From assembly GCA_023129115.1 (NCBI GenBank), contig JAGMCR010000009.1, forward strand, positions 6,121-70,120: 64,000 bases of DNA. Reading direction: 5' to 3'. The notes under the pieces are model-generated. The model was not told where the DNA came from and made no database searches. It worked only from the letters and a program-made list of their open reading frames with translations. The position numbers and the translations under genes are program-made. Positions 4,998 to 59,805 of the stretch are shown piece after piece (position 1 is the first letter of the stretch; the number at the start of each line of letters is the position of its first letter). The stretch is from Candidatus Iainarchaeum sp. GTDB lineage: Archaea > B1Sed10-29 > WALL01.

Positions 4998-5011
4998 ATG
5001 ACGAGGTTATC

Positions 5012-5018
5012 TTTATAT
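5012..5018 (+). promoter_or_regulatory. TATA-like box of the por operon
   Basis: TTTATAT lies about 29 nt upstream of ATG 5045. A second box (5026-5035) faces the divergent amidohydrolase gene. Confidence 0.45.
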
Positions 5019-5044
5019 CCGGTGCTGGTTTTTAAAGATACACC

Positions 5045-5572
5045 ATGATGGAAATACGCTTTCACGGGCGCGGCGGGCAGGGCGCCGTTACGGCAGCAGA
5101 AGTCCTTGCGGTCGCAGCATTCAAGGACGGCAAGTACGCGCAGGCCTTCGGCAAGTTCGGGCCGGAGCGCCGCGGCGCGCCGGTCCAGTCCTTCACGCGG
5201 ATTAGCGACGAGCCGATTAGGATTAGGCAGGAGGTCTACGAGCCAGACTGTGTCGTGGTGCTGGACGCGAGCCTCATGAAGGTCGTGGACGTCAGGGAAG
5301 GGCTCAAGGAAGGCGGCATCCTGATAATCAACACTGGCGAAGAAGTCGCCGGCGCGTGGGCCGTCGACGCCACCCAAATCGCCATGGACGTAATCGGCAA
5401 GCCCATAGTGAACACGGCGATGCTCGGCGCGTTCAACAAGGCCAGCGAGTGCGCGGTCACGCTGGACTCGCTCACCGAGGCAATCAAGGAAAGGTTCCCG
5501 GGGAAAATCGGGGAACTCAATTCAAAAGCGATAGTGAAGGCCAGCGAGGGCTGCGCCTGCTGTGAGGTGTGA
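5045..5572 (+). CDS. porG: 2-oxoacid (pyruvate-type):ferredoxin oxidoreductase, gamma subunit
   Basis: N-terminus [19 protein letters not shown]...GPERRGAP is the gamma-subunit signature. It is the first gene of a 4-gene gamma-delta-alpha-beta operon. Confidence 0.85.
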
Positions 5573-5826
5573 AGATGGTCGGTGGCGTGGTGACAAAGGT
5601 TGGGAGCCTGGACTCCAACAAAACGGGGAGCTGGCGGAGCTTCAGGCCGGTGATTGACAGGGAAAAGTGCATCGGATGTGGGCTGTGCAAGAAGTTCTGC
5701 CCCGACGTCTGCATAGAAATCAAGGACAAGAAGGCAGAGGTCGACTACGACTACTGCAAGGGGTGCCTGATTTGCAAGAGCGTGTGCCCTGTCCAGGCGA
5801 TATCGTCGGAAGAGGAGGAGAAGTAG
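5569..5826 (+). CDS. porD: 2-oxoacid:ferredoxin oxidoreductase, delta subunit (2x[4Fe-4S])
   Basis: Two CxxCxxCxxxCP clusters ([24 protein letters not shown]). The start overlaps the porG stop. Confidence 0.85.
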
Positions 5827-6945
5827 ATGGTGAAAAAGATTGCCGAGGGGAGCCACGCCGTGGCAGAAGTCGTGCGGCTTCTGAACCCGGACGTGCTGGC
5901 AATGTACCCAATCACTCCGTCGACACATATCCCTGAGCGGCTGAGCGACTTCGAGTCCGACGGGGAATTGGATGGCACGATAATCCGTGTCGACTCAGAG
6001 TTTTCGGCGATGTCCGCGCTCGTGGGCGCGAGCGCGACTGGCGTGAGGACGTACACGGCGACGAGCAGCCAAGGGCTGGCACTAATGCACGAGGTCTTGT
6101 TCGTCGCGTCCGCGATGAGGCTGCCGATTGTCATCACGGTCGTGAACCGCGCGCTTAGCGCGCCATTGAATATCTTTAACGACTGGCAGGACTCGATTAG
6201 CGAGCGCGACTCGGGATGGATACAGATGTACGGAGAGGACTCGCAGGAAGTCGCGGACCTGATGGTGCAGGCGTACCGCATCGCGGAAGACAAGAGGGTG
6301 CTGCTGCCGGTCATGGTGTGCATGGACGGCTTTTTCTTGAGCCATACCTACGACGTGATTGACGTGCCCGAGGACCTGAAGGGGTTCGTGCCTCCGTACA
6401 AGCCAGAGCACGCGTACCTGGACCCGAAGAGGCCGCAGACGCAGGGCGCGTGGGCCATGCAGGAGCCCTACTTCGAGCTGAGGAAAGAGCTGGAGGAGGC
6501 GGTGGGCGCGGCGCTGCCAGTGATAAAAGAGGTTCATGACGAGTTTGCGAAAGTGTTCGGCCGAAGTTATGGGGGCGGGGCCATTGATGTCTATGGCGAG
6601 GGCGACACTGTCGTTGTGTCCATGGGCAGCGTGTGCACCAACCTAAAGGTCCTTGCCGACAGGCTGGGCTTCCAGGTGGTGCGCGTGAGGTGCTACCGGC
6701 CGTTCCCGGCCGAAGACGTTAAGAAGGCGCTGGAGGGGAAGAAGGCGGTTGCGGTGTTCGAGAAGGACGTTGCGTACGGCACTGGCCACGGCGCGCTCTA
6801 CAACGACGTGCGGGCGTGCACGACGGGCAAGGCAGTGAACTTCATCGTCGGGCTCGGCGGGCTGGACGTCCCAATCAATGCACTGGAGAAGATGTGCGGG
6901 GAGATAGATGCCATGAATGACGGCGAGACGAGGTGGCAGAGATGA
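5827..6945 (+). CDS. porA: 2-oxoacid:ferredoxin oxidoreductase, alpha subunit
   Basis: 372 aa. The N-terminus EGSHAVAEVVRLLNPDVLAMYPITPST is typical of alpha subunits. The operon context supports the call. Confidence 0.85.
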   Translation: MVKKIAEGSHAVAEVVRLLNPDVLAMYPITPSTHIPERLSDFESDGELDGTIIRVDSEFSAMSALVGASATGVRTYTATSSQGLALMHEVLFVASAMRLPIVITVVNRALSAPLNIFNDWQDSISERDSGWIQMYGEDSQEVADLMVQAYRIAEDKRVLLPVMVCMDGFFLSHTYDVIDVPEDLKGFVPPYKPEHAYLDPKRPQTQGAWAMQEPYFELRKELEEAVGAALPVIKEVHDEFAKVFGRSYGGGAIDVYGEGDTVVVSMGSVCTNLKVLADRLGFQVVRVRCYRPFPAEDVKKALEGKKAVAVFEKDVAYGTGHGALYNDVRACTTGKAVNFIVGLGGLDVPINALEKMCGEIDAMNDGETRWQR

Positions 6946-6951
6946 CTATGA

Positions 6952-7010
6952 TGCCTCTGGGGGCATCTGTTGATGCCCCCAAGTCTACCGCGCCAGCTGA
7001 GGTTTCGGCT
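6952..7010 (+). repeat. G-run hairpin mini-element, copy a (inserted between porA and porB)
   Basis: Sequence is TGCCTCT-GGGGGCATC-tgtt-GATGCCCCC-AAGTCTACCGCGCCAGCTGAGGTTTCGGCT. It has a perfect 9-bp stem (6959-6967 / 6972-6980). It is bracketed by the 16-bp direct repeat GAGGTGGCAGAGATGA (6930-6945 and 7016-7031). Confidence 0.8.
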
Positions 7011-7027
7011 GAGATGAGGTGGCAGAG

Positions 7028-7915
7028 ATGAGTAGTGAAGTTATTTCGTCTGGGCACTCGGCTTGCGCCGGGTGCGGCGAAATCATTGGCGAGCGCATGG
7101 TGCTCGAGGCGCTGGGCAAGGACGTGATTGTTTGCCAGGCGACGGGGTGCATGGAAATCACTACAACGCCTTATCCGCGGACCGCGTTCAAGGTGCCGTG
7201 GCTGCACGTGACTTTCGAGAACGCGGCGTCTGCCGCCAGCGGGATTGTCGAGGCCGACAGGAAGCTCGGCCGCAATACCACTGTCGTGGCCATCGGCGGC
7301 GACGGCGGCATGATGGACATCGGGGTTCGCGCCTTGAGCGGGGTGATGGAGCGGGGCCACGACCTGATGCTGGTCGTGACCGATAACGAGGCGTACATGA
7401 ACACCGGGATACAGCGGTCGAGCGGCACGCCGAAGTACGCGGCGACTACGACTACTCCGGCGGGCAGCGTTGTGCCTGGGAAGAGGGAGTGGAAGAAGAG
7501 CATTTCGAGGATTGCGATTGCGCACGGGATTCCGTACGTCGCGACGGCAAGCATTGGGTTCCCCGAGGACCTGGTGGCCAAGGTAAAGAAGGCCCAGGGC
7601 ATCAAGGGCCCAAAGCTGCTGCACATTTACACGCCGTGCCCTGTGGGGTGGGGGTATGACTCGAGCAAGACGGTTTACTACGCCAAGAAGATTGTCGAGA
7701 CCGGGCTGTGGCCGCTTTACGAGATAGAGAACGGGAAGCTCACGATAAGCCAGAGGCCGACGTTCGCGCCGCTGGAAGAATATTTCACTGGCCAGAAGCG
7801 GTACAAGCACATCAAGCCCGAGCACATCAAGGAAGTCAGTGAGCGCGTCAAGGCTGGCTGGAAAGAACTGGAAAAGCAGGAGAAGGCCGGCGTCGACTTG
7901 ATGCTTCTTCCCTAG
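7028..7915 (+). CDS. porB: 2-oxoacid:ferredoxin oxidoreductase, beta subunit (TPP-binding)
   Basis: N-terminal SGHSACAGCG cluster and the TPP motif GGDGGMMDIG. ATG 7028 is preceded by GAGGTG. The track start at GTG 7019 lies inside the duplicated 16-mer. Confidence 0.85.
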   Translation: MSSEVISSGHSACAGCGEIIGERMVLEALGKDVIVCQATGCMEITTTPYPRTAFKVPWLHVTFENAASAASGIVEADRKLGRNTTVVAIGGDGGMMDIGVRALSGVMERGHDLMLVVTDNEAYMNTGIQRSSGTPKYAATTTTPAGSVVPGKREWKKSISRIAIAHGIPYVATASIGFPEDLVAKVKKAQGIKGPKLLHIYTPCPVGWGYDSSKTVYYAKKIVETGLWPLYEIENGKLTISQRPTFAPLEEYFTGQKRYKHIKPEHIKEVSERVKAGWKELEKQEKAGVDLMLLP

Positions 7916-9480
7916 AGCCCTGCCTCGAGCTGTGACTTTAGCTGGCCGAGCTTCTGGATTATTTCCTTGGTCTTGGCGAGGTTTTGCAGCGAGACTGAGG
8001 TCTCGAGCGACACCAGGCCGATGTCTGTTTTTGCGACGAGCAGGTTGAGTGCGGAGACGTCCTGCCCCGCTGCCTTGCCTGTGGTGATTTTGCTTTTGGC
8101 GCTGGCGAGCGTGTCCTTCAGGAAGTCGGCGACGTCCTTGCCAAGCTTTTGCCAGAGGGCTTTTGCGTCCTCTGGCGACGCCGCGGTGTTCAGCTTCTTC
8201 TCGAATCCGGTGAACGTGTCAAGCACGGCCTTGTCTGCCTCGCCTCCCTTCAGCGCCTTCCTGAGCTCCAGCATTTTGGTCCTGACGTCTTTTTGGGCGG
8301 GCGCCGCGGCGCGCCTCGGCTTTGCGGCCTTGCCCTCAAGCTGCTCGAACTCTTTCTCGAAGTCCTGCCTGGAGAGTGTCGCGAGCACGGCCTTGCGGAC
8401 CAGTTCTTTCATCCCGCGGTCGAATTCCACGAGCTGCTGCTGTGTCTCTAGGAGGTCGCGCTCCTGGCGCTGCAGCGACTCCACGCGGTCCGCGAGCATG
8501 CCCATGGTGCCGCTGAACTCGTCAATCCTTTTGCCGAAGTCCCTTGACTTGATTTCCTTTGCCAGCGCCGCGAGGTCTGTGCGGATGTCGTGGACCTCTT
8601 GTAGGTTTTCGGTGTTGCGCTCCCCCCACTCCACGAGCTTTGTCTGGAGGCCCAAGACGGACTCGTTTAGGGTGTTCAGCTCCACGCGCTCCTTCCCGAC
8701 CGCGGAGTAAAGGTCCTCGAACTCCTCGTTGTGCTTGACGATTGTCTTCTTGAGCTCCTCGAACTTGTCGATGGAGCCCGCGACCTGGCCCATCTGGCCC
8801 ATGGTGCGCTCCATTTCCTTCTTGAGCTTTTCGCCGACCTGGGCCTGGGACTCGATGGCGGCGACGCGCTTCAGGAGCGCGTTTAGCTCTTTGGCGTTGC
8901 TCATGCTTTCCTTGTGCCACGCCTCGAGCTCGGTCTTGAGGGTCCGGAGGAATTCCTCTCCCTCTTTGGTCTCGGCCGCCATCTTGCGCGGCGCGGCCTT
9001 GACCTCTTCCTTGAGTGACGTGAGCTCTTCGTCGTGCCGCTGGTCGGTGCTGTCGGACGACGCAGAGAGCTCCTCGAGCTTTTTCTGCAGCTCGATTATG
9101 CGTTCTTTTTCCGTCTGCAGCTTGGAAAGCTGCTCCTCGATGGCGGCCCTCGCCTCGGGGGCTGCCTGCGAAAGCGGGAGCTTTGCGAGTGTCTCCATTT
9201 GGGCCTGGAGCCTGGCGAGCTCTGCCTTTGTCTCCGGCGGCATCGTGGGCTTCTTGGCCGCCATCTGCTGGACCTTCGTGGCCAGGCCCGCAATCTCCTG
9301 CTGGAGCTCGGGGGGGATTGCAGTCTTCTGGGAAAGCAGCTCGAGCCGCTTGTTCAGCGCCGCGATTGAGGTCTGGTTCCTCTTGCTCTCGTCGTGCCAC
9401 TCCTGCAGCTCGTCCTTTATGGACTTGAGGGAGATGGCGAGCTTCTGCATCACTTGCGCCGTAGAAACGTCTTCTGGCAT
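7912..9480 (-). CDS. Long coiled-coil protein (522 aa), function unknown
   Basis: E/K/Q/L/A-rich throughout. It has three internal repeats of the type L..EL.EWH.ES..N...L.AL.KR. No enzymatic motif. Confidence 0.6.
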   Translation of the reverse strand: MPEDVSTAQVMQKLAISLKSIKDELQEWHDESKRNQTSIAALNKRLELLSQKTAIPPELQQEIAGLATKVQQMAAKKPTMPPETKAELARLQAQMETLAKLPLSQAAPEARAAIEEQLSKLQTEKERIIELQKKLEELSASSDSTDQRHDEELTSLKEEVKAAPRKMAAETKEGEEFLRTLKTELEAWHKESMSNAKELNALLKRVAAIESQAQVGEKLKKEMERTMGQMGQVAGSIDKFEELKKTIVKHNEEFEDLYSAVGKERVELNTLNESVLGLQTKLVEWGERNTENLQEVHDIRTDLAALAKEIKSRDFGKRIDEFSGTMGMLADRVESLQRQERDLLETQQQLVEFDRGMKELVRKAVLATLSRQDFEKEFEQLEGKAAKPRRAAAPAQKDVRTKMLELRKALKGGEADKAVLDTFTGFEKKLNTAASPEDAKALWQKLGKDVADFLKDTLASAKSKITTGKAAGQDVSALNLLVAKTDIGLVSLETSVSLQNLAKTKEIIQKLGQLKSQLEAGL

Positions 9481-10179: not shown

Positions 10180-10184
10180 CCAGC

Positions 10185-10250
10185 TGCCTCTCTTAAGGGG
10201 GGCTACGCCAATTGGCGTAGCCCCCCAAGTTGTGGGGATTAACCCCCATA
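10185..10250 (+). repeat. G-run hairpin mini-element, copy e
   Basis: TGCCTCT-cttaa- followed by the perfect 30-nt palindrome GGGGGGCTACGCCAATTGGCGTAGCCCCCC (10197-10226), then AAGT. A small second hairpin TGGGG-attaac-CCCCA follows at 10233-10248. The 3' boundary is uncertain. Confidence 0.7.
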
Positions 10251-10305
10251 GTACGCGGCACAAAAGCACCTAGATTTTTATACTCATAGCTTGTATTCCA
10301 CCTCA

Positions 10306-31844: not shown

Positions 31845-31905
31845 TACTAAAACACCCCATTTTCCTTTTTTCTCTTAATTCGGCGTATATTACAATTCAA
31901 GCCCT

Positions 31906-46148: not shown

Positions 46149-47421
46149 TTATACAAGAAAGCTTTATAAAAGCATGAAGAGGTATTAAAGTATATGAAAA
46201 TTCACACCTTGGACGTGTTGCCCCGTCAGGTGAGAACAAAAGCTGGTAAAAAGCGGCTGCTCGTCTTGAAAGAAGGTTCCATCAGCTCCCTTCTGCCCAT
46301 AAAACTCAGGATATTGCGCCTACTCTCTAAGAAAGCCTTAAAAACAACCCAAGTCACGGAATTGCTAGGGATCCAGAAAAGGACGACCAGAAAATTTTTA
46401 AATGAGCTCGAGATTGAAGAAAAAATTGTGAGGACAGAAGGCAATCGCATTAACAACTCTTTTCGTTTCGCTGATTCATGGAGAATTGTTGGCAAGATAA
46501 GTGGCATCCCAAATAAACCCCCAAAAGACAGGGTATGTGTCTGGTACTCCACCAAGCACACTAATTACTCTACCCGTCATTACTGTTTTTTGCCGAAAGA
46601 GATAGGGCTAACAGACAACATCGCGTCTGCTATTGGCATATTTGATGGTGAGGGCAGCAAAACAAAAATTACTACGTTGGAGATTGTGAACAACGAGCCA
46701 CTGGTGATTAAATGCCTACTGGAGTTTTTTGGGATTTTTGGCATTCGGAAAAAAGACTGGAAGTGGAGATTAACATTCAATATTAAACTGAAGGACAAGT
46801 TGAGTGTAAAGGCTATTAAGAAGGCAAGAGAGTATTGGGTCAAGAGCACAAAGATATCCGCTGAAAACGAGACTGCTAGCTCCCCACAGTTTTTGGGTAC
46901 CCGCATAGGCAAAATCAGACGAGGCCCTCCGTGGGGGGCTTTGAGTATTTTTTACAATAGTGTGATACTGCGGAGCGTGCTAGCCTCAATTATGGAAAAC
47001 TTAAAACCAATGATACTACAGGATCCGCAGCTGGTCGCGGGGTATCTTAGGGGCTACCTCGCTGCAGAAGCATACGTTGGAGCAAACGACAGGGCGATAC
47101 AAACAGCCTCAACAAGAAAAGAAGAACTTGCTTATCTTGGAAAATGCTTTGATGTTATAGGGGTTAAAGCATCCATGAGTAAAGCAACAAGCACGTCGCC
47201 ACCACGCATTATTGTTACCAATTTTGATTCTTTCATGAAGCTATACAAGTTAGACGTGTTCAGGCTTCATCCATACAAAAAGGCTAACTTGCTTTCAAAA
47301 TTACTAAATTATACCCTATTAACTGGGGATGACAAAGAAAAAATTGGAAAAGAATTGAAGACACTAAACAACAAAATAGAAAACAGAGAAAAGCCTTTCA
47401 AAAAATTTACTTATACAAAAA
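46149..47421. mobile_element. Putative insertion of the LAGLIDADG gene, bounded by a short direct repeat that copies the gatD tail
   Basis: TTATACAAGAA (46149-46159) versus TTATACAAAAA (47411-47421), 10/11. The right copy is the gatD 3' end (reverse complement ...TTTTTGTATAAGTAA). The left copy (reverse complement TTTCTTGTATAAC) sits in the promoter region of the kinase gene. The repeat is short and AT-rich, so chance is not excluded. Confidence 0.35.
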
Positions 47422-47447
47422 CATATCTGGCTCGAGCTGGGGGTTGA
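46194..47447 (+). CDS. Free-standing LAGLIDADG homing-endonuclease-like protein with N-terminal wHTH
   Basis: Two LAGLIDADG-type motifs, IASAIGIFDGEGS and LVAGYLRGYLAAEAYVG, lie about 150 aa apart. An N-terminal wHTH (LRLLSKKALKTTQVTELLGIQKRTTRKFL) precedes them. This is the most AT-rich gene here. Its last 41 nt overlap the gatD 3' end. Confidence 0.65.
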   Translation: MKIHTLDVLPRQVRTKAGKKRLLVLKEGSISSLLPIKLRILRLLSKKALKTTQVTELLGIQKRTTRKFLNELEIEEKIVRTEGNRINNSFRFADSWRIVGKISGIPNKPPKDRVCVWYSTKHTNYSTRHYCFLPKEIGLTDNIASAIGIFDGEGSKTKITTLEIVNNEPLVIKCLLEFFGIFGIRKKDWKWRLTFNIKLKDKLSVKAIKKAREYWVKSTKISAENETASSPQFLGTRIGKIRRGPPWGALSIFYNSVILRSVLASIMENLKPMILQDPQLVAGYLRGYLAAEAYVGANDRAIQTASTRKEELAYLGKCFDVIGVKASMSKATSTSPPRIIVTNFDSFMKLYKLDVFRLHPYKKANLLSKLLNYTLLTGDDKEKIGKELKTLNNKIENREKPFKKFTYTKTYLARAGG

Positions 47448-48741: not shown

Positions 48742-49428
48742 TCAACCACTCGACGTTAGCTTTTCGCCCTTCTCGTTTTTAATGATAGGCACGGCCACGA
48801 CTTCCAGTGGCTGGAGCCCGAGCTCGATGCGCTTTTCATTGATTAGGTCGGCGCTGGGCCTCGTCTCGTCGCTGACCACGATGGTGCTGAACCGCGGCTC
48901 AAGCGCAAAGCCGTAGACGTCATCTATCTCGCAAATCACTGCGCCCCAGCCCATTTCCGAGAGGAACCGCTCGAGGCCTGCCTGCCTCTCCGCGAACGAA
49001 GGCACGTTGGAGTGCTTGGAAGACGCGAACTCGTCGCTCGTCAAGCCGATTTCCACTATCTTCCCAAGCGCGAACGCCATGCTGAACAAGTACTCGTGGC
49101 CCTTGTGGATAGCGCTGAAGGTCCCGCCAACACAGACCATGTCGCCCTTCTCTGCCGAAGCGTCCGGGAGGCGGATGTGCTCCAGGGAGCTGGAAGGAGT
49201 GGCAGCACTGGAGGAGCCGGCTTCTTCGCCACTGGGGGGGCTGGCAACTGCCAGCCCCCCGGTTTCAGCTTCTTCCTCCCCCGGTTGTGGCTCCTCTTCG
49301 ACGGTTTCTGGCTCTTCTTCAGTTTCTTGTTTTTCCTCCCCGGTTTCTTCTTCGGGCTCCAAAAGCAGGTCCTCGTCTTCTTCAATGTCCATTGCCGGGT
49401 CCAGCGGCGGGGGTGGGGGGCTGTTCAT
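48742..49428 (-). CDS. coaD: Phosphopantetheine adenylyltransferase (archaeal type) with a 96-aa acidic low-complexity N-terminal extension (or start at ATG 49140)
   Basis: The catalytic domain begins at MVCVGGTFSAIHKGHEYLF (nucleotidyltransferase H-x-G-H). Upstream is an in-frame P/E-rich region that contains a hairpin-element palindrome. Confidence 0.7.
   Translation of the reverse strand: MNSPPPPPLDPAMDIEEDEDLLLEPEEETGEEKQETEEEPETVEEEPQPGEEEAETGGLAVASPPSGEEAGSSSAATPSSSLEHIRLPDASAEKGDMVCVGGTFSAIHKGHEYLFSMAFALGKIVEIGLTSDEFASSKHSNVPSFAERQAGLERFLSEMGWGAVICEIDDVYGFALEPRFSTIVVSDETRPSADLINEKRIELGLQPLEVVAVPIIKNEKGEKLTSSG
49235..49270 (+). repeat. G-run hairpin element-like palindrome embedded in an ORF, copy f
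   Basis: GGGGGGCTGGCA-AC-TGCCAGCCCCCC (49235-49260) followed by GGTTTCAGCT (compare GGTTTCGGCT at the end of copy a). It reads in frame as ETGGLAVASPP on the minus strand. Confidence 0.55.
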
Positions 49429-52329: not shown

Positions 52330-53399
52330 TAATCAAGCAGTCGCCGCAAGATTTTGTTGTCGAAGAAATAACTCTTGACGGGGAAGTGCTGGAGGTCGGG
52401 AAAGAATATTCTTTTTCTGGTGGGGAGGGAGAGCACCTTGTTTTTGTGCTGGAGAAGACAAACTGGGCGACTATGGGCGCGATGAAGGAATTGGGAAAGC
52501 GCTTGCATTGCTCGGAAAAGCGCTTGGGGTTCGCGGGCACCAAGGACCGGCGCGCCGTGACAACGCAGAGGTGCTCTGCGTGGAACGTGAAGAAGGAAGA
52601 GCTTGACAAAGTAAATATAAAAGACATAACGCTGAAGCCGCTCTGCTATGGCGAGCGCGTGGGGCTCGGCGACCTGTGGGGGAACAGGTTCACGATAACA
52701 GTGCGGGAGTTCGACGGCGAGGGAAAAATGCCGGAGAAAATCCCGAATTTTTTCGGGCCGCAGCGGTTTGGGGGGCAGAGGCCGATAACCCACCTCGTCG
52801 GCAAGGCGATTGTGAACGGCCAGTTCCACGACGCCGCCGACATATACCTTTTTGAGACGATGGAGGGCGACCCGGAGAGGGAAGTGCGGGAGAAATGCAG
52901 GGGCGACTACGCCCGCGCCCTCAAGGAATTCCCGATGCACCTTAAGTACGAGCGGTCGATGCTTGGCTGGCTCGCGAAGAGCCCGGGCGACTGGGTGGGT
53001 GCGCTGCGGGCATTGCCGCGGAAATTGCTGGTGATGTTCGTTCATGCTTACCAGTCGCACTTGTTCAACCGCGTGCTCGAGGAGCGGGGCATTGAGCCGA
53101 GGAAAGGGGACGTCCTTGAGGAGGGAGTGCCCACGGGCCCGCTGTTTGGCATGGAGTGCCCGCTCGCCGCCGGGGAGGCGGGCGAGATTGAGCGCCGCGT
53201 GCTTGAGGGCGAGTGGCTGGGGCTGAGGGACTTCGAAATCCACGGCATGCCTGACCTGACGAGCAAGGGCATGAGGCGGAGGCTCTGGATTGAGCCGAAG
53301 GGCTTCGAGGTGTTGGAGGGGGGCGGGAGCTGGATAAAAGTAAGGTTTTCGCTGCCGAAGGGGTGCTACGCGACTACTGCGTTAGATTACCTGAAGTAG
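52326..53399 (+). CDS. truD: tRNA pseudouridine synthase TruD/Pus7 family
   Basis: FAGTKDRRAVTTQ catalytic-Asp motif, and NFFGPQRFG. Confidence 0.85.
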   Translation: MIIKQSPQDFVVEEITLDGEVLEVGKEYSFSGGEGEHLVFVLEKTNWATMGAMKELGKRLHCSEKRLGFAGTKDRRAVTTQRCSAWNVKKEELDKVNIKDITLKPLCYGERVGLGDLWGNRFTITVREFDGEGKMPEKIPNFFGPQRFGGQRPITHLVGKAIVNGQFHDAADIYLFETMEGDPEREVREKCRGDYARALKEFPMHLKYERSMLGWLAKSPGDWVGALRALPRKLLVMFVHAYQSHLFNRVLEERGIEPRKGDVLEEGVPTGPLFGMECPLAAGEAGEIERRVLEGEWLGLRDFEIHGMPDLTSKGMRRRLWIEPKGFEVLEGGGSWIKVRFSLPKGCYATTALDYLK

Positions 53400-53400
53400 A

Positions 53401-53500
53401 TGCCTCTGGGGGGCGTCAACTGCCACCGGCTTAGGGGGGCGCCGACTGGCGCCCCCCTAGTCCATTGCGATGGCTTGGTAGTCTAACGCGAAGTTATCCT
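53401..53500 (+). repeat. G-run hairpin mini-element, copy b (composite/nested)
   Basis: It starts 1 nt after the truD stop with TGCCTCT-GGGGGGCGTCAACTG, whose 15 nt GGGGGGCGTCAACTG match copy c. A complete hairpin TAGGGGGGCGCC-gact-GGCGCCCCCCTA follows at 53432-53459, then TAGTCCATTGCGATGGCTTGGTAGTCTAACGCG. It is bracketed by GTTAGATTACCT at 53381-53392 and 53506-53517. Confidence 0.7.
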
Positions 53501-54353
53501 AAGCTGTTAGATTACCTTCAGTAAGGTTTCCCGGCTCGGCAGGAATGGCCAAGAAGTACGGCAGGCCTTCCCTCAGGAGCCCTATTGTCGCGTTGACCGC
53601 TTTTTGCGAGTCGCCGGGGGCGGGCTGTATGTCTATGGTCGAGTTGCCCACGTGCACCTGTGTCGTGGGGTAGGACGGGTAGCGCAGGATTATGGACGGC
53701 TCCTCGAGGGCCTGGCGGCACTTTTCGACCGGGACTTGCGCGTTTGAGCTGTTGGTGCACGAGAGCCAGTCGCCGTCCGCCTGCACGCCGTAGACGCTCA
53801 CGTTCACCCCCTCTGACGCGAGGTGGAAGACGAGCGGCACGAACGCGTCGACTGCTCCCTGGGGGTCTTCGCCGGGCTTTACCTCGAAAAAGAAGTTCAC
53901 TTCGGGGGAGTAGCCCAGCAATGCCGCCTTGAGCAGGGGGTTCCAGTGGTACGAGTAAAAGATTATGCCTGCCTGCTTGTCGCCGGCGGCGTTGTAGTCT
54001 ACGTAGAGGCCTTCCGAGTTGTGCAGGAGCTTGTGGCCGTTCTCGTCAGTGGCGTAGACGCTTATTTGCTTAAGGCCGACGTCGTCGTACGGCGAGACGA
54101 AGTAGCTGAAGAAGTAGCTGTTGCCCTCCTGCCTGTCAAGGGTGGCCTCGCGGTCCGGGAGGAGAACTGATATCTGGTTGAGCGGAATGCTGGAGTCCAC
54201 GCGTATCGTGGCGTAGCCTATGGCTGCGGGCTGGGGATGGGCGGAGACATTGAGCTCGGCGCGCTCGCTGTGGGACGTGCCGAAGTACGAAGTGATGCCT
54301 ATTGAAATGACGACTATAAGGGCGAGGAATATCCATTGCTTTTGTGCTTTCAT
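53499..54353 (-). CDS. Secreted protein with signal anchor, several N-x-S/T sequons, function unknown
   Basis: N-terminal MKAQKQWIFLALIVVISIGITSYF. It is downstream of, and possibly co-regulated with, the large surface protein gene. Confidence 0.55.
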   Translation of the reverse strand: MKAQKQWIFLALIVVISIGITSYFGTSHSERAELNVSAHPQPAAIGYATIRVDSSIPLNQISVLLPDREATLDRQEGNSYFFSYFVSPYDDVGLKQISVYATDENGHKLLHNSEGLYVDYNAAGDKQAGIIFYSYHWNPLLKAALLGYSPEVNFFFEVKPGEDPQGAVDAFVPLVFHLASEGVNVSVYGVQADGDWLSCTNSSNAQVPVEKCRQALEEPSIILRYPSYPTTQVHVGNSTIDIQPAPGDSQKAVNATIGLLREGLPYFLAIPAEPGNLTEGNLTA

Positions 54354-57752: not shown

Positions 57753-58049
57753 ATGGTCAATCCCGCCAACTTCACGGCGCTGCCCATTGCATTTAACGAG
57801 CCGAGCGGGCTCATAGTGCTCGCCGTGGGCGCAGTCGTCGTCGTTGCCGCGTTCTACATATTCTTCCGCATAATCAAGGACGTCATCGCAAACGCCATAA
57901 TCGGCGGAATCGGCTTGATAGTGCTGCACTTCGCCGGCCCACACATCGGCGTCAGCGTGCCCATCGACTTGATAAACATCGTAATCGCCATCCTCGGCGG
58001 ATTGCCGGGACTGGCCATAATAGTCGTTTTCTCGGCTCTTGGGCTATAG
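57753..58049 (+). CDS. Small membrane protein, BofA-like (tentative)
   Basis: 98 aa with 3 hydrophobic helices. The pattern IANAIIGGIGLIVLHF...INIVIAILGGLPGLAIIV recalls the BofA family. I start at ATG 57753. Confidence 0.4.
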   Translation: MVNPANFTALPIAFNEPSGLIVLAVGAVVVVAAFYIFFRIIKDVIANAIIGGIGLIVLHFAGPHIGVSVPIDLINIVIAILGGLPGLAIIVVFSALGL

Positions 58050-58110
58050 CCTAGCTCAGTAGACTAGGGGGGCGTCAACTGACGCCCCCCCTAGGCTGGT
58101 TTGAATTAAG
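58050..58110 (-). repeat. G-run hairpin mini-element, copy c
   Basis: Plus strand: CCTAGCTCAGTAGACTA-GGGGGGCGTC-aact-GACGCCCCCC-CTAGGCTGGTTTGAATTAAG, with the stem at 58067-58076 / 58081-58090. Its two ends abut the TAG of the BofA-like gene and the TAA of the duplicated radical SAM tail. Confidence 0.75.
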
Positions 58111-58198
58111 TTATTTGAATACTCCAGCAATCTTCGCGCTGCACGACGGGCACTTCCCCTTGTCCACGTGGCTTTCCAGCAGCGCGAAGCCGTGCCGC
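58111..58198 (-). pseudogene. Displaced duplicate of the last 29 codons of the radical SAM gene
   Basis: The minus strand reads RHGFALLESHVDKGKCPSCSAKIAGVFK-stop, versus RHGFALLESHVDKGKCHSCGQKIAGVFK-stop in the real gene. 58149-58198 is identical to 58294-58343 (50/50). The last 39 nt differ at 14 positions. Confidence 0.8.
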
Positions 58199-58254
58199 AG
58201 CCCAAACCTGAGCTGGCGAGGTAGACTTGGGGGGCACAAAGCCCCCCAGAGGCA
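58199..58254 (-). repeat. G-run hairpin mini-element, copy d
   Basis: The reverse complement is TGCCTCT-GGGGGGC-tttgt-GCCCCCC-AAGTCTACCTCGCCAGCTCAGGTTTGGGCT. It starts 1 nt after the radical SAM TAA. Its flanks are nearly identical to copy a. Confidence 0.8.
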
Positions 58255-58255
58255 G

Positions 58256-59302
58256 TTACTTAAAAACGCCGGCAATCTTCTGCCCGCAGCTGTGGCACTT
58301 CCCCTTGTCCACGTGGCTTTCCAGCAGCGCGAAGCCGTGCCGCTTTATCAATGCCTCGCCGCAGTTGGGGCAGTGCGTGTTCTCGAACGGGTCGCCGGGA
58401 TAAGTGTTGCCGCAGTACACGTACTTCACGCCGCTCTCGAGCGCGATTTCCCTTGCCTTTACGAGCGTCTCGCGCGGGGTGGGGTTGGTGTTCCGCATCT
58501 TGTACGCGGGAAAGAACGCGGAGAAGTGGAGGGGCATGTTTGGGTCGAGGTCGTGCACGAACTCCGAGATTTGTAGTATGGACGCGTTGTCGTCGTTCTG
58601 GCCGGGGATGATGAGGTTGGTCACCTCGACCCAGGTCTTGTTCCGCTTCATTCTTTTTATTGAGTCGAGGACGTGCTGCATCTCGACGCCGCCGCACACT
58701 TTTTTGTAGAACTCTTCGTTGCCCTTTACGTCGACGTTGGCGGCGTCCAATTCCTTGTAGTCCTTGAGCATTTCTTTGGTCATGTAGCCGTTCGTGACGA
58801 AGACGTTCTTGATTTTTTGTTTGTGCGCGAGCACGCTGGTGTCCTTGGCGTACTCGTAGAAAATCGTTGGCTCCGTATAAGTGTAGCTGATGCTTGGTGT
58901 TTTGTACTCGCCCGCCAATCGCACGACTTCACTTGGCGGGACCTCGCGCTGCGGCCCGGCCTCCCACGCGGCCTGGCTGATTTCCCAGTTCTGGCAGTGC
59001 TGGCAATGCAGGTTGCATCCCACAGTCGCGATGCTGAGGGTTTCGGTGCCCGGCAAAAAATGAAACAGCGGCTTTTTTTCGATGGGGTCCGTGTTGACCG
59101 AGCATGGCTTGGCGTACGTCATTGCGTACAGGGTGCCGCGGATGTTCTCGCGCACCTGGCAGTTGCCCCTGCCGCCCTCGGGGATTTTGCACCGCCGGTT
59201 GCACAGGCTGCACTGGACGGCCTTGTCCTTGAGCTTTTTGTATAGGTACGCTTCTTTCACGCGAGAGACAAAGCGCCCCGCCGATATAAAGGTTTTGTGC
59301 AA
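58256..59302 (-). CDS. AmmeMemoRadiSam-system-type radical SAM enzyme (PflA-like activase family)
   Basis: CNLHCQHCQNW radical SAM cluster, an N-terminal CSLCNRRCKI cluster and a C-terminal CPNCG...CHSCG zinc ribbon. Confidence 0.75.
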   Translation of the reverse strand: MHKTFISAGRFVSRVKEAYLYKKLKDKAVQCSLCNRRCKIPEGGRGNCQVRENIRGTLYAMTYAKPCSVNTDPIEKKPLFHFLPGTETLSIATVGCNLHCQHCQNWEISQAAWEAGPQREVPPSEVVRLAGEYKTPSISYTYTEPTIFYEYAKDTSVLAHKQKIKNVFVTNGYMTKEMLKDYKELDAANVDVKGNEEFYKKVCGGVEMQHVLDSIKRMKRNKTWVEVTNLIIPGQNDDNASILQISEFVHDLDPNMPLHFSAFFPAYKMRNTNPTPRETLVKAREIALESGVKYVYCGNTYPGDPFENTHCPNCGEALIKRHGFALLESHVDKGKCHSCGQKIAGVFK

Positions 59303-59555: not shown

Positions 59556-59628
59556 GGCTCGGGTAGTGTAACGGCTGGCACAGTAGGTTGTGGTCCTGCT
59601 AGAGCGGGTTCGACTCCCGCCCCGAGCC
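59556..59628 (+). tRNA. tRNA-His (anticodon GTG) with genome-encoded G-1
   Basis: Hand-folded structure:
- G-1
- acceptor GCTCGGG / CCCGAGC
- D stem GTGT / GCAC
- anticodon stem GTAGG / CCTGC with loop TTGTGGT
- 4-nt variable loop
- T arm GCGGG-TTCGACT-CCCGC
- discriminator C pairing with G-1
No encoded CCA. Confidence 0.85.
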
Positions 59629-59805
59629 CTAAACGAGGTGGTGAAGATGATTAAGGGTGTTTCACTTCACCAAAGCCTACTTTCTGGAGACGCAAGGCTC
59701 GGCAGCCCTCATAGCTGAAGCAGTCATTCTCAGGAATGGCATTGTTTGCAATGTAGAGATTATTGTTAATGGTTCAATGCGGGGCAAAGCAGAGGTGAGT
59801 TTTTC

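Follow-up and report, generated by a model that had tools for sequence, protein, structure and literature searches.

In a 64,000-nucleotide stretch of the genome of the uncultured DPANN archaeon Candidatus Iainarchaeum sp. (assembly GCA_023129115.1, contig JAGMCR010000009.1; hereafter the window, to which coordinates refer unless another sequence is named), the operon for pyruvate:ferredoxin oxidoreductase carries an insertion between porA and porB, the genes for the alpha and beta subunits. A structured element of ~60 nt has inserted immediately after the porA stop codon, and it belongs to an element family that is restricted to the Iainarchaeum-related DPANN clade. Two features of this family are unusual: its target duplications are long, variable in length and located at stop codons, and at the por locus a frame-conserved open reading frame (ORF) bridges the coupled junction of the two genes.

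The inserted element at the porA-porB junction

The operon is ordered porG-porD-porA-porB. Its third gene, porA (5827..6945, forward strand), contains the Pfam domains POR_N and PFOR_II, and its product has the C-terminus ETRWQR* seen in relatives. The beta subunit, which binds thiamine pyrophosphate, is encoded by porB (7028..7915, forward strand), for which homologues were found and which contains TPP_enzyme_C. These domains were read on identical genes in the ENA assembly ERZ23498683, scaffold_7 (268,886 bp). The spacing between successive genes is 2 nt, 0 nt and then 82 nt at porA/porB. The porA stop TGA lies at 6943-6945, and the porB ATG at 7028 has GAGGTG six bases ahead of it; the ORFs and sequence agree here with the first-pass annotation of this DNA, according to which porA still ends at 6945 and the porB Shine-Dalgarno (SD) sequence and start codon are intact. 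The insertion was recovered in three independent assemblies (ENA, JGI and Logan) and is therefore not an assembly artefact.

Searches with PorA and PorB recovered relatives that are DPANN archaea allied to Candidatus Iainarchaeum. Five of them, namely L001, L002 (the single-amplified genome (SAG) AM-311-L14), L012, L014 and L016, have an empty junction (..GAAACGAGGTGGCARNNATGAGYAGT..) with a direct ATGA overlap of porA and porB, which is the arrangement that had been anticipated for relatives. The junction of the outgroup L003, a more distant Iainarchaeum, reads TGAATG. Filled junctions are present in the window, in L010 (which has the same PorB as L008 and L011, 87% identical to that of the window) and in L013 (PorB 81% identical to that of the window). 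The empty site in five relatives, together with the presence of the same element at other loci, bears out the proposal that a hairpin element was inserted into the por operon.

The insert is bracketed by copies of its target. A duplicated 16-mer had been reported here, and a computational recheck found GAGGTGGCAGAGATGA exact at both 6930-6945 and 7016-7031, with no third match in the window even when two mismatches were allowed; two occurrences were found in 0 of 100 shuffled sequences. The true duplication is 21 nt long, GAGACGAGGTGGCAGAGATGA (6925-6945) against GAGATGAGGTGGCAGAGATGA (7011-7031) with one mismatch, because the same 21-nt unit, GARACGAGGTGGCANNN(A/G)TGA, brackets the element in all three filled alleles. 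The unit spans the codons ETRWQx, the stop codon and the ATGA. The left copy (6925..6945, forward strand) provides the last six porA codons and TGA and still contains the former porB SD GAGGTG (6930-6935) and ATG (6942-6944), while the right copy (7011..7031, forward strand) holds the working SD (7016-7021) and the porB ATG. Both copies support the view that the duplication kept the porA stop on the left and the porB SD and start on the right. The similarity that was thought to extend further upstream with one indel has a different source: the extra CGGC is part of the element's own conserved 3' end (..GGCT), and as this end is also found in copies elsewhere, the match is not target DNA and no indel is needed.

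Between the left duplicate and the element lies a linker, CTATG (6946..6950, forward strand), which is TT in L010 and AACCACTA in L013, the lengths differing by multiples of 3. The element (6951..7010, forward strand), which was aligned with four other copies and scores 82 bits with the covariance model, is composed of ATGCCTCT, hairpin 1, AAGTCTACCGCGCC and hairpin 2. Hairpin 1 (6958..6981, forward strand) has ten pairs, T-A and GGGGGCATC/GATGCCCCC, closed by the loop TGTT, and includes the 9-bp GC stem described earlier within the 70 nt between the two 16-mers. Its apex differs among copies with pairing retained. Hairpin 2 (6995..7010, forward strand) pairs AGCTG with CGGCT around the loop AGGTTT and covaries to AGCTC/GGGCT and AGCCC/GGGCT elsewhere. 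The family consensus can be written as ATGCCTCT, hairpin 1 (G5-6 ... C5-6 with a free apex), AAGTCTACCNCGCC and hairpin 2 (AGCYS AGGTWY SGGCT).

Across the five aligned copies, standard pairs occupy 95.8% of pair cells and both-sided changes occur at 4 pairs, with 0 in all slid-register controls, and the covariation score was equalled by 1 of 500 shuffles. Both predicted hairpins are thus supported by compensatory changes. A U.G pair of hairpin 2 is kept in 4 of the 5 copies; the opposite strand would show an A.C mismatch at this position, so the structure belongs to the sense strand, most simply as RNA. Hairpin 1 alone has a folding energy of ~ -21 kcal/mol in the centroid fold, and the 120-nt region folds with z = -3.1. 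An enclosing helix, GCCUC/GAGGU, appears in the minimum-free-energy folds of two copies and was rejected: it is not kept in the copy beside a radical-SAM gene (copy B, below) or in the copy at truD of the SAG, and it is hairpin 2 that covaries instead.

A bridging reading frame and probable constraint on the por copy

The whole porB initiation region is still present in the left duplicate, with GAGGTG and ATG set 6 nt apart, and an ORF therefore reads from this ATG through the element to the right-hand (A/G)TGA. This ORF, here called the relay ORF (6942..7031, forward strand), has 29 codons (MTMMPLGASVDAPKSTAPAEVSAEMRWQR*). Its ATG overlaps the porA TGA and its TGA overlaps the porB ATG, in both cases as ATGA (6942-6945 for porA/relay and 7028-7031 for relay/porB). 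The two overlaps are also both ATGA in L010, and are ATGA and then GTGA in L013, whose porB starts at GTG. The relay frame is open in L010 (26 codons) and L013 (29 codons) as well, and the other two frames are closed in all three alleles. The insert measures 86 nt in the window (linker 5, hairpin-1 length 22), 77 nt in L010 (linker 2, hairpin-1 length 16) and 86 nt in L013 (linker 8, hairpin-1 length 19). Divided by 3, each insert length thus leaves a remainder of 2, and the linkers and hairpin 1 vary in length only in steps of 3 nt. The first-pass annotation had described a hairpin that sits between the two cistrons; this is correct as to position, but the hairpin lies inside a 29-codon ORF that overlaps both porA and porB by ATGA, and this changes the likeliest way in which the insertion works.

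Reporter studies in Haloferax volcanii and E. coli have found that termination-reinitiation falls steeply with distance and is nearly abolished at ~20 nt, and that genes for subunits of heteromeric complexes are over-represented among overlapping pairs (PMC10666635). The 82-nt spacer, if untranslated, would therefore break the coupling of porA and porB, whereas a bridging ORF with ATGA at both ends would preserve it. A 4-nt stop/start overlap, one of the two kinds (4 nt and 1 nt) that mark termination-reinitiation pairs, is found at both ends of the relay ORF. In such a relay, ribosomes that end porA, or that initiate at the left SD, would translate the relay ORF and in doing so melt both hairpins. 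They would then terminate on the porB start codon and reinitiate, thereby recovering the coupling that would otherwise be lost across 82 untranslated nt. The arrangement resembles the coupling described by Huber et al. (2019, 2023) in its 4-nt ATGA overlaps at both junctions and in joining genes for subunits of a heteromeric complex (PMC10666635). It differs in that a three-step relay from a gene through an insertion-born bridging ORF to the next gene is not described there, and in that coupling at por is something we infer.

The por copy is strongly conserved between alleles. Outside the hairpin apex, 50 of 50 positions are identical between the window and L010, against a background identity of 55.6% at porB four-fold sites, 84% over porB as a whole and 65% in the 150 nt of porA upstream. 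Between the window and L013 the corresponding figure is 33/40, with 38.8% identity at four-fold sites (P ~2e-8). Copies at different loci in one genome differ at positions where copies at the same locus agree across genomes, and homogenisation among copies is therefore not the explanation. These alignments suggest that purifying selection acts on the por copy where it stands, or else that its alleles are younger than the surrounding genes. The element appears to be under constraint in both sequence and structure, and a role of its own at the RNA level, for example in protein binding, stability or processing, is therefore probable.

Other copies of the family and their flanking duplications

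At least six copies of the family (A-F) are found in the 64-kb window, the por element being copy A. Copy B (58199..58255, reverse strand; 81.8 bits) directly follows the stop codon of a radical-SAM gene (58256-59302, reverse strand) and is absent from the orthologous site of the SAG. Near it lies copy C (approximately 58040..58108, reverse strand; 25 bits), a diverged 'TAG' subtype that is the orthologue of the single SAG element at that site. Copy D (53400..53502, forward strand) directly follows the truD stop and is composite or nested, at a site where the SAG has a clean single copy. It agrees with the SAG copy over its first 23 nt; beyond these, the 3' arm has given way to a second hairpin of the 'TAG' type, after which comes a remnant of the linker, TAGTCTAACGCG. 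This layout suggests nesting or replacement.

The remaining two copies are more divergent in form. Copy E (10184..10255, forward strand; z = -7.25) is a long-stem variant with a 13-pair hairpin 1 and an 8-pair hairpin 2, and lies between a divergent trmJ-like gene (start 10179, reverse strand) and a gene at 10291 for a putative secreted protein. It stands just upstream of a TTTTTATA box, its right flank is a conserved promoter-like region, and a diverged orthologous copy is present in L010 (3910-4020). The ACTCAT repeats that flank copy E are likely due to chance. Copy F (approximately 49225..49275, forward strand; GCCACTGGGGGGGCTGGCAACTGCCAGCCCCCCGGTTTCAGCT) was recognised by eye inside the coding region of a gene on the reverse strand (48742-49428). 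Its 11 pairs (G6/C6) form a perfect hairpin at a place that encodes an acidic, low-complexity part of the N-terminus. The flanks resemble the element ends (GCCACTGGGGGGG ... CCCCCCGGTTTCAGCT), and as judged by this resemblance copy F may be an in-frame, internally deleted copy of the element. The GCTTCTTC repeats around it are likely chance matches in low-complexity sequence. Four of the non-por copies sit just 3' of genes in the sense orientation. A further degenerate or rearranged member (..GGGGGGTGCTCGCCAGCTCAGCGGGGGGTGCAACCCCCCAAGGGGCTG..) was seen at L009 2680-2745, ~1.4 kb before the window, just 3' of a gene for Spt5/NusG.

Searches for the family outside this DNA returned very little. 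Among 185,579 species genomes, the linker motif in exact and degenerate form had a true match only in the truD copy of SAG AM-311-L14; a match in a Pirellulaceae contig lacks the hairpin and was set aside as chance. No match to the motif was found in viral contigs, and the metagenome scan with it returned only one contig, the por site of L008. When the element's translated frame was searched against proteins, nothing matched. Scanning the window and ~86 kb of related or adjacent DNA with the covariance model added only weak or degenerate copies, and the weak matches at 31900 and at L007 7476 are not considered members of the family.

Direct repeats also accompany the element at two loci other than por. 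At truD (53373..53524, forward strand), the last ~27-32 nt of the gene recur beyond the element in the window and the SAG alike (SAG: L007 1170-1300): in the window, the left copy (53373-53399) ends truD and the right copy (53503-53524) encodes the C-terminus of a convergent gene (53499-54353, reverse strand). In the element-free Iainarchaeum genomes L017, L018 and L019, which are distant relatives among the matches listed, the convergent 284-aa gene and truD share 38, 26 and 29 nt at their facing 3' ends. An ancestral tail-to-tail overlap, once duplicated, therefore accounts for the separation of the two genes, each with its own 3' end. The two copies of the truD end have since diverged.

At the radical-SAM locus, the window is 145 nt longer than the SAG through an insertion made up of copy B and a 90-nt direct repeat of the 3' end of the gene (58109..58343, reverse strand). 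The functional copy of the repeat (58254-58343) and the displaced one (58109-58198) flank copy B. The repeat is a mosaic, its first 50 nt being identical and its last 40 nt containing 14 differences. Six of the nine differing codons are synonymous, and it is the displaced copy, not the functional one, that departs from the SAG orthologue. Judging from this pattern, the mosaic looks like the product of later homologous recombination with a diverged functional allele. A diversity-generating retroelement was rejected as its source because the differences are not adenine-specific. A Logan contig from essentially the same organism (SRR13892594; L098) breaks at position 1 inside the 3' part of the radical-SAM gene, beside the duplicated end and copy B, which is consistent with the repeat having confused the assembler. 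Across the three loci the duplications measure 21 nt (por), ~27-32 nt (truD) and 90 nt (radical-SAM), and at all three the right edge of the left duplicate falls 0-2 nt after a stop codon.

Two further regions of the window are of separate interest. The GC content has its minimum at 42-48 kb (0.46-0.48 vs ~0.58 elsewhere), in a region that includes a 417-aa ORF (46194-47447) with weak matches to HTH_DeoR and LAGLIDADG_3; this ORF could be a homing-endonuclease-like gene or foreign DNA. A tRNA-His gene (59557-59629) lies directly upstream of a complete histidine-biosynthesis operon (59806 onward; L097) with hisD, a hisC-HAD phosphatase fusion, hisB, hisH, hisA, hisF, hisIE and hisG, followed by the gene for histidyl-tRNA synthetase.

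Relation to known elements and competing explanations

We wondered how the family relates to small repeats that are already known. Like MITEs, the miniature transposable elements with inverted repeats, it has dispersed copies and is polymorphic in presence, the por site being filled in 3 genomes and empty in 5, and copy B being absent in the SAG. It lacks the terminal inverted repeats of MITEs, since the 5' end ATGCCTCTGG and the reverse-complemented 3' end AGCCGAAACC match at 2 of 10 positions and the only hairpins are internal, and its duplications (21, ~27-32 and 90 nt) are neither short nor fixed in length. A Pfam scan of ten large ORFs, with the 64 kb and ~13 kb of the 269-kb scaffold read, identified no transposase, reverse transcriptase or Cas1. 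Palindromic elements of the REP/RAYT type or derived from IS200/IS605 (PATE) insert beside a specific short target sequence without duplicating it. This mode does not fit the long duplications at three loci, and no fixed 4-5-mer is common to the left flanks (..ATGA, ..GTAG, ..GTAACT). Rfam contains no family for the element. The site has no resemblance to a terminator: a scan of 5000-8200 returned no terminator-like site at 6946-7031, and the longest T run in the element is TTT. An integron attC site was dismissed by eye as the R'/R'' core motifs are missing. An archaeal bulge-helix-bulge intron was likewise rejected, as the flanks are direct repeats rather than complementary sequences and the folds lack the bulge-helix-bulge motif.

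Palindromic repeats located between cistrons are common in bacteria, where they include REP/BIME (for example the REP between malE and malF), ERIC and Correia/NEMIS. The present family resembles the REP/BIME type in being made of short GC-rich hairpin repeats that are intergenic or intercistronic in compact genomes, often 3' of genes, and in varying in presence between strains; the bacterial repeats can also influence operon mRNA. It differs from them in being archaeal (DPANN), in having two hairpins with a conserved single-stranded linker and in its long duplications (21, ~30 and 90 nt) in place of terminal inverted repeats, a TA or a short fixed duplication, and the scan of ten large ORFs turned up no RAYT or other partner. 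Rickettsia palindromic elements land in existing genes, to whose proteins they contribute extra peptide segments. They share with the present family the persistence of a small palindromic repeat in translated sequence in frame, here in the relay ORF and perhaps in copy F, but the translated copy here would be a separate mini-ORF between two genes. The closest parallel for the duplications is the IS1634 family, to which IS1549 belongs: its direct repeats of 8-514 bp are variable and made by a mechanism described as unknown, and it is reported to occur preferentially in Euryarchaeota (PMC2266710). Its target duplications are likewise long and vary from copy to copy. Its members, however, measure 1.5-2 kb and have a DDE transposase and terminal inverted repeats, whereas the elements here are 55-60 nt with no such repeats and no transposase identified, and a link between the two families is speculation.

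The explanation that we favour, with moderate confidence, is an insertion with a 21-nt duplication in which a relay ORF was kept in frame, porA-porB coupling was restored and the element itself came under constraint. More tentatively, the process by which the family inserts may generate target duplications that are long and of variable length, and in this tightly packed genome the only insertions to survive may be those whose duplication covers all that two genes share. On the PorB tree, the sequences are arranged as (window, (SAG empty, L010 filled)), L012 empty, (L013 filled, L001 empty), L014 empty. The identical duplication boundaries of the filled alleles argue for one insertion followed by precise losses, and precise loss is plausible because recombination between the 21-nt repeats would recreate ATGA exactly. 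If the insertion had a single origin and four length changes, the frame would be kept by chance in ~(1/3)^4 or ~1/81 of cases, and if there were three separate insertions, in ~(1/3)^3 or ~1/27, before the requirement for no stop is considered; these values come from three alleles and four length differences, which is the first of several points that weigh against our explanation. The element's relay frame, and one other, are intrinsically free of stops, and an open frame at insertion has a ~1-in-3 chance. With its own SD, porB could be translated independently, making the relay unnecessary, and translation of the relay ORF is itself a prediction from sequence. The filled alleles are not monophyletic on the PorB tree, and the variable codon of the duplication matches within genomes: both copies in the window read AGA, like the empty site of the SAG, and the two L013 copies read GCA and GCG, in line with the empty L014; this agreement favours at least two insertions at one spot, or repeat conversion. 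The identity of the window and L010 elements could reflect separate recent insertions from conserved master copies, and conservation in place is not universal, as the window truD copy is broken or nested when compared with that of the SAG. Finally, an insertion partner (transposase, reverse transcriptase or Cas1) was not found among the ten large ORFs.

Several other explanations have to be weighed against this one. At the transcript level the hairpins may attenuate the operon internally, mark a processing site or stabilise a 3' end, and so alter the porGDA:porB ratio, an idea that we regard as tentative and which is compatible with a relay ORF. REP/BIME hairpins act in this manner on the transcript of the E. 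coli malEFG operon. The stability and conservation of the structure (~ -21 kcal/mol; z = -3.1), the covariation and U.G pair that indicate a transcribed sense strand and the position of four other copies just 3' of genes in sense orientation all agree with a transcript-level role. However, the oligo-T tract that is the usual archaeal termination signal is missing after the hairpins, the hairpins are located in an ORF with a good start site and would be unfolded by translating ribosomes, and, as alpha and beta belong to an obligate complex, a strong block between them would be expected to do harm. It is also rather unlikely, in our estimate, that the insertion is tolerated junk, a selfish or accidental event with no function here, porB being translated from its own SD and the ORF an incidental by-product. 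That every length difference among the three alleles preserves the frame, that the por copy is 50/50 identical where four-fold sites are 44% diverged and that both hairpins keep pairing through compensatory changes would all be surprising for such junk, even though the right copy holds a full SD and ATG, two of the element's three frames are open anyway, the window truD copy has decayed or been overwritten and close relatives, the SAG among them, have apparently lost the site or never acquired it.

A very improbable alternative is that the spacer is ancestral and the ATGA overlap of relatives arose by deletion, with no insertion at all. The scatter of filled alleles on the PorB tree would suit it, and since recombination between 21-nt repeats gives exactly ATGA, some empty sites may be secondary losses. 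Against this, the junction is empty in the outgroup Iainarchaeum (L003), in the basal L014 and in L016, the same element is found at unrelated loci with different flanking duplications, and direct repeats of the target on both sides are what an insertion characteristically leaves. That the inserted segment is a small RNA gene of the C/D-box type is scarcely credible: with 20.7 bits over 161 nt (E = 0.045), its best Rfam match falls well short of the 64-bit gathering threshold. Such RNAs have conserved C (RUGAUGA) and D (CUGA) boxes at their ends, and although the window copy with its flanks carries ATGATG and CTGA, these box-like motifs come from locus-specific flanks and are absent in copy B and the SAG truD copy, and a 10-pair GC hairpin occupies the would-be guide position.

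A broader reading is possible, though by no means probable: that the family is an undescribed archaeal mobile element, a structured RNA or DNA module of 55-60 nt without inverted ends, which inserts at stop codons with duplications of 21-90 nt and whose mini-ORF at por was kept by selection as a ribosome relay. Such an element would split overlapping or abutting genes and harm neither.

Small hairpin repeats are a familiar feature of bacterial operons. Their counterparts in DPANN archaea are, to our knowledge, hardly known, and the genomes of these archaea are packed so tightly that an insertion almost anywhere should strike a gene. The por locus presents a route by which an insertion onto the 4-nt stop/start overlap of an essential enzyme could be accommodated and long retained. 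At truD, an overlap of ~30 nt has been dissolved and both genes freed from the constraint of dual coding. The long, variable duplications point to a mechanism of insertion that is not yet described for elements this small. If the relay operates as proposed, its frame and the position of its stop would matter and the sequence of its peptide would not, which would be relevant to the study of translational coupling and to the design of synthetic operons. Were the broader reading to hold, duplication of this kind would offer ultra-compact genomes a general way to accept insertions in coupled operons and to dissolve gene overlaps.

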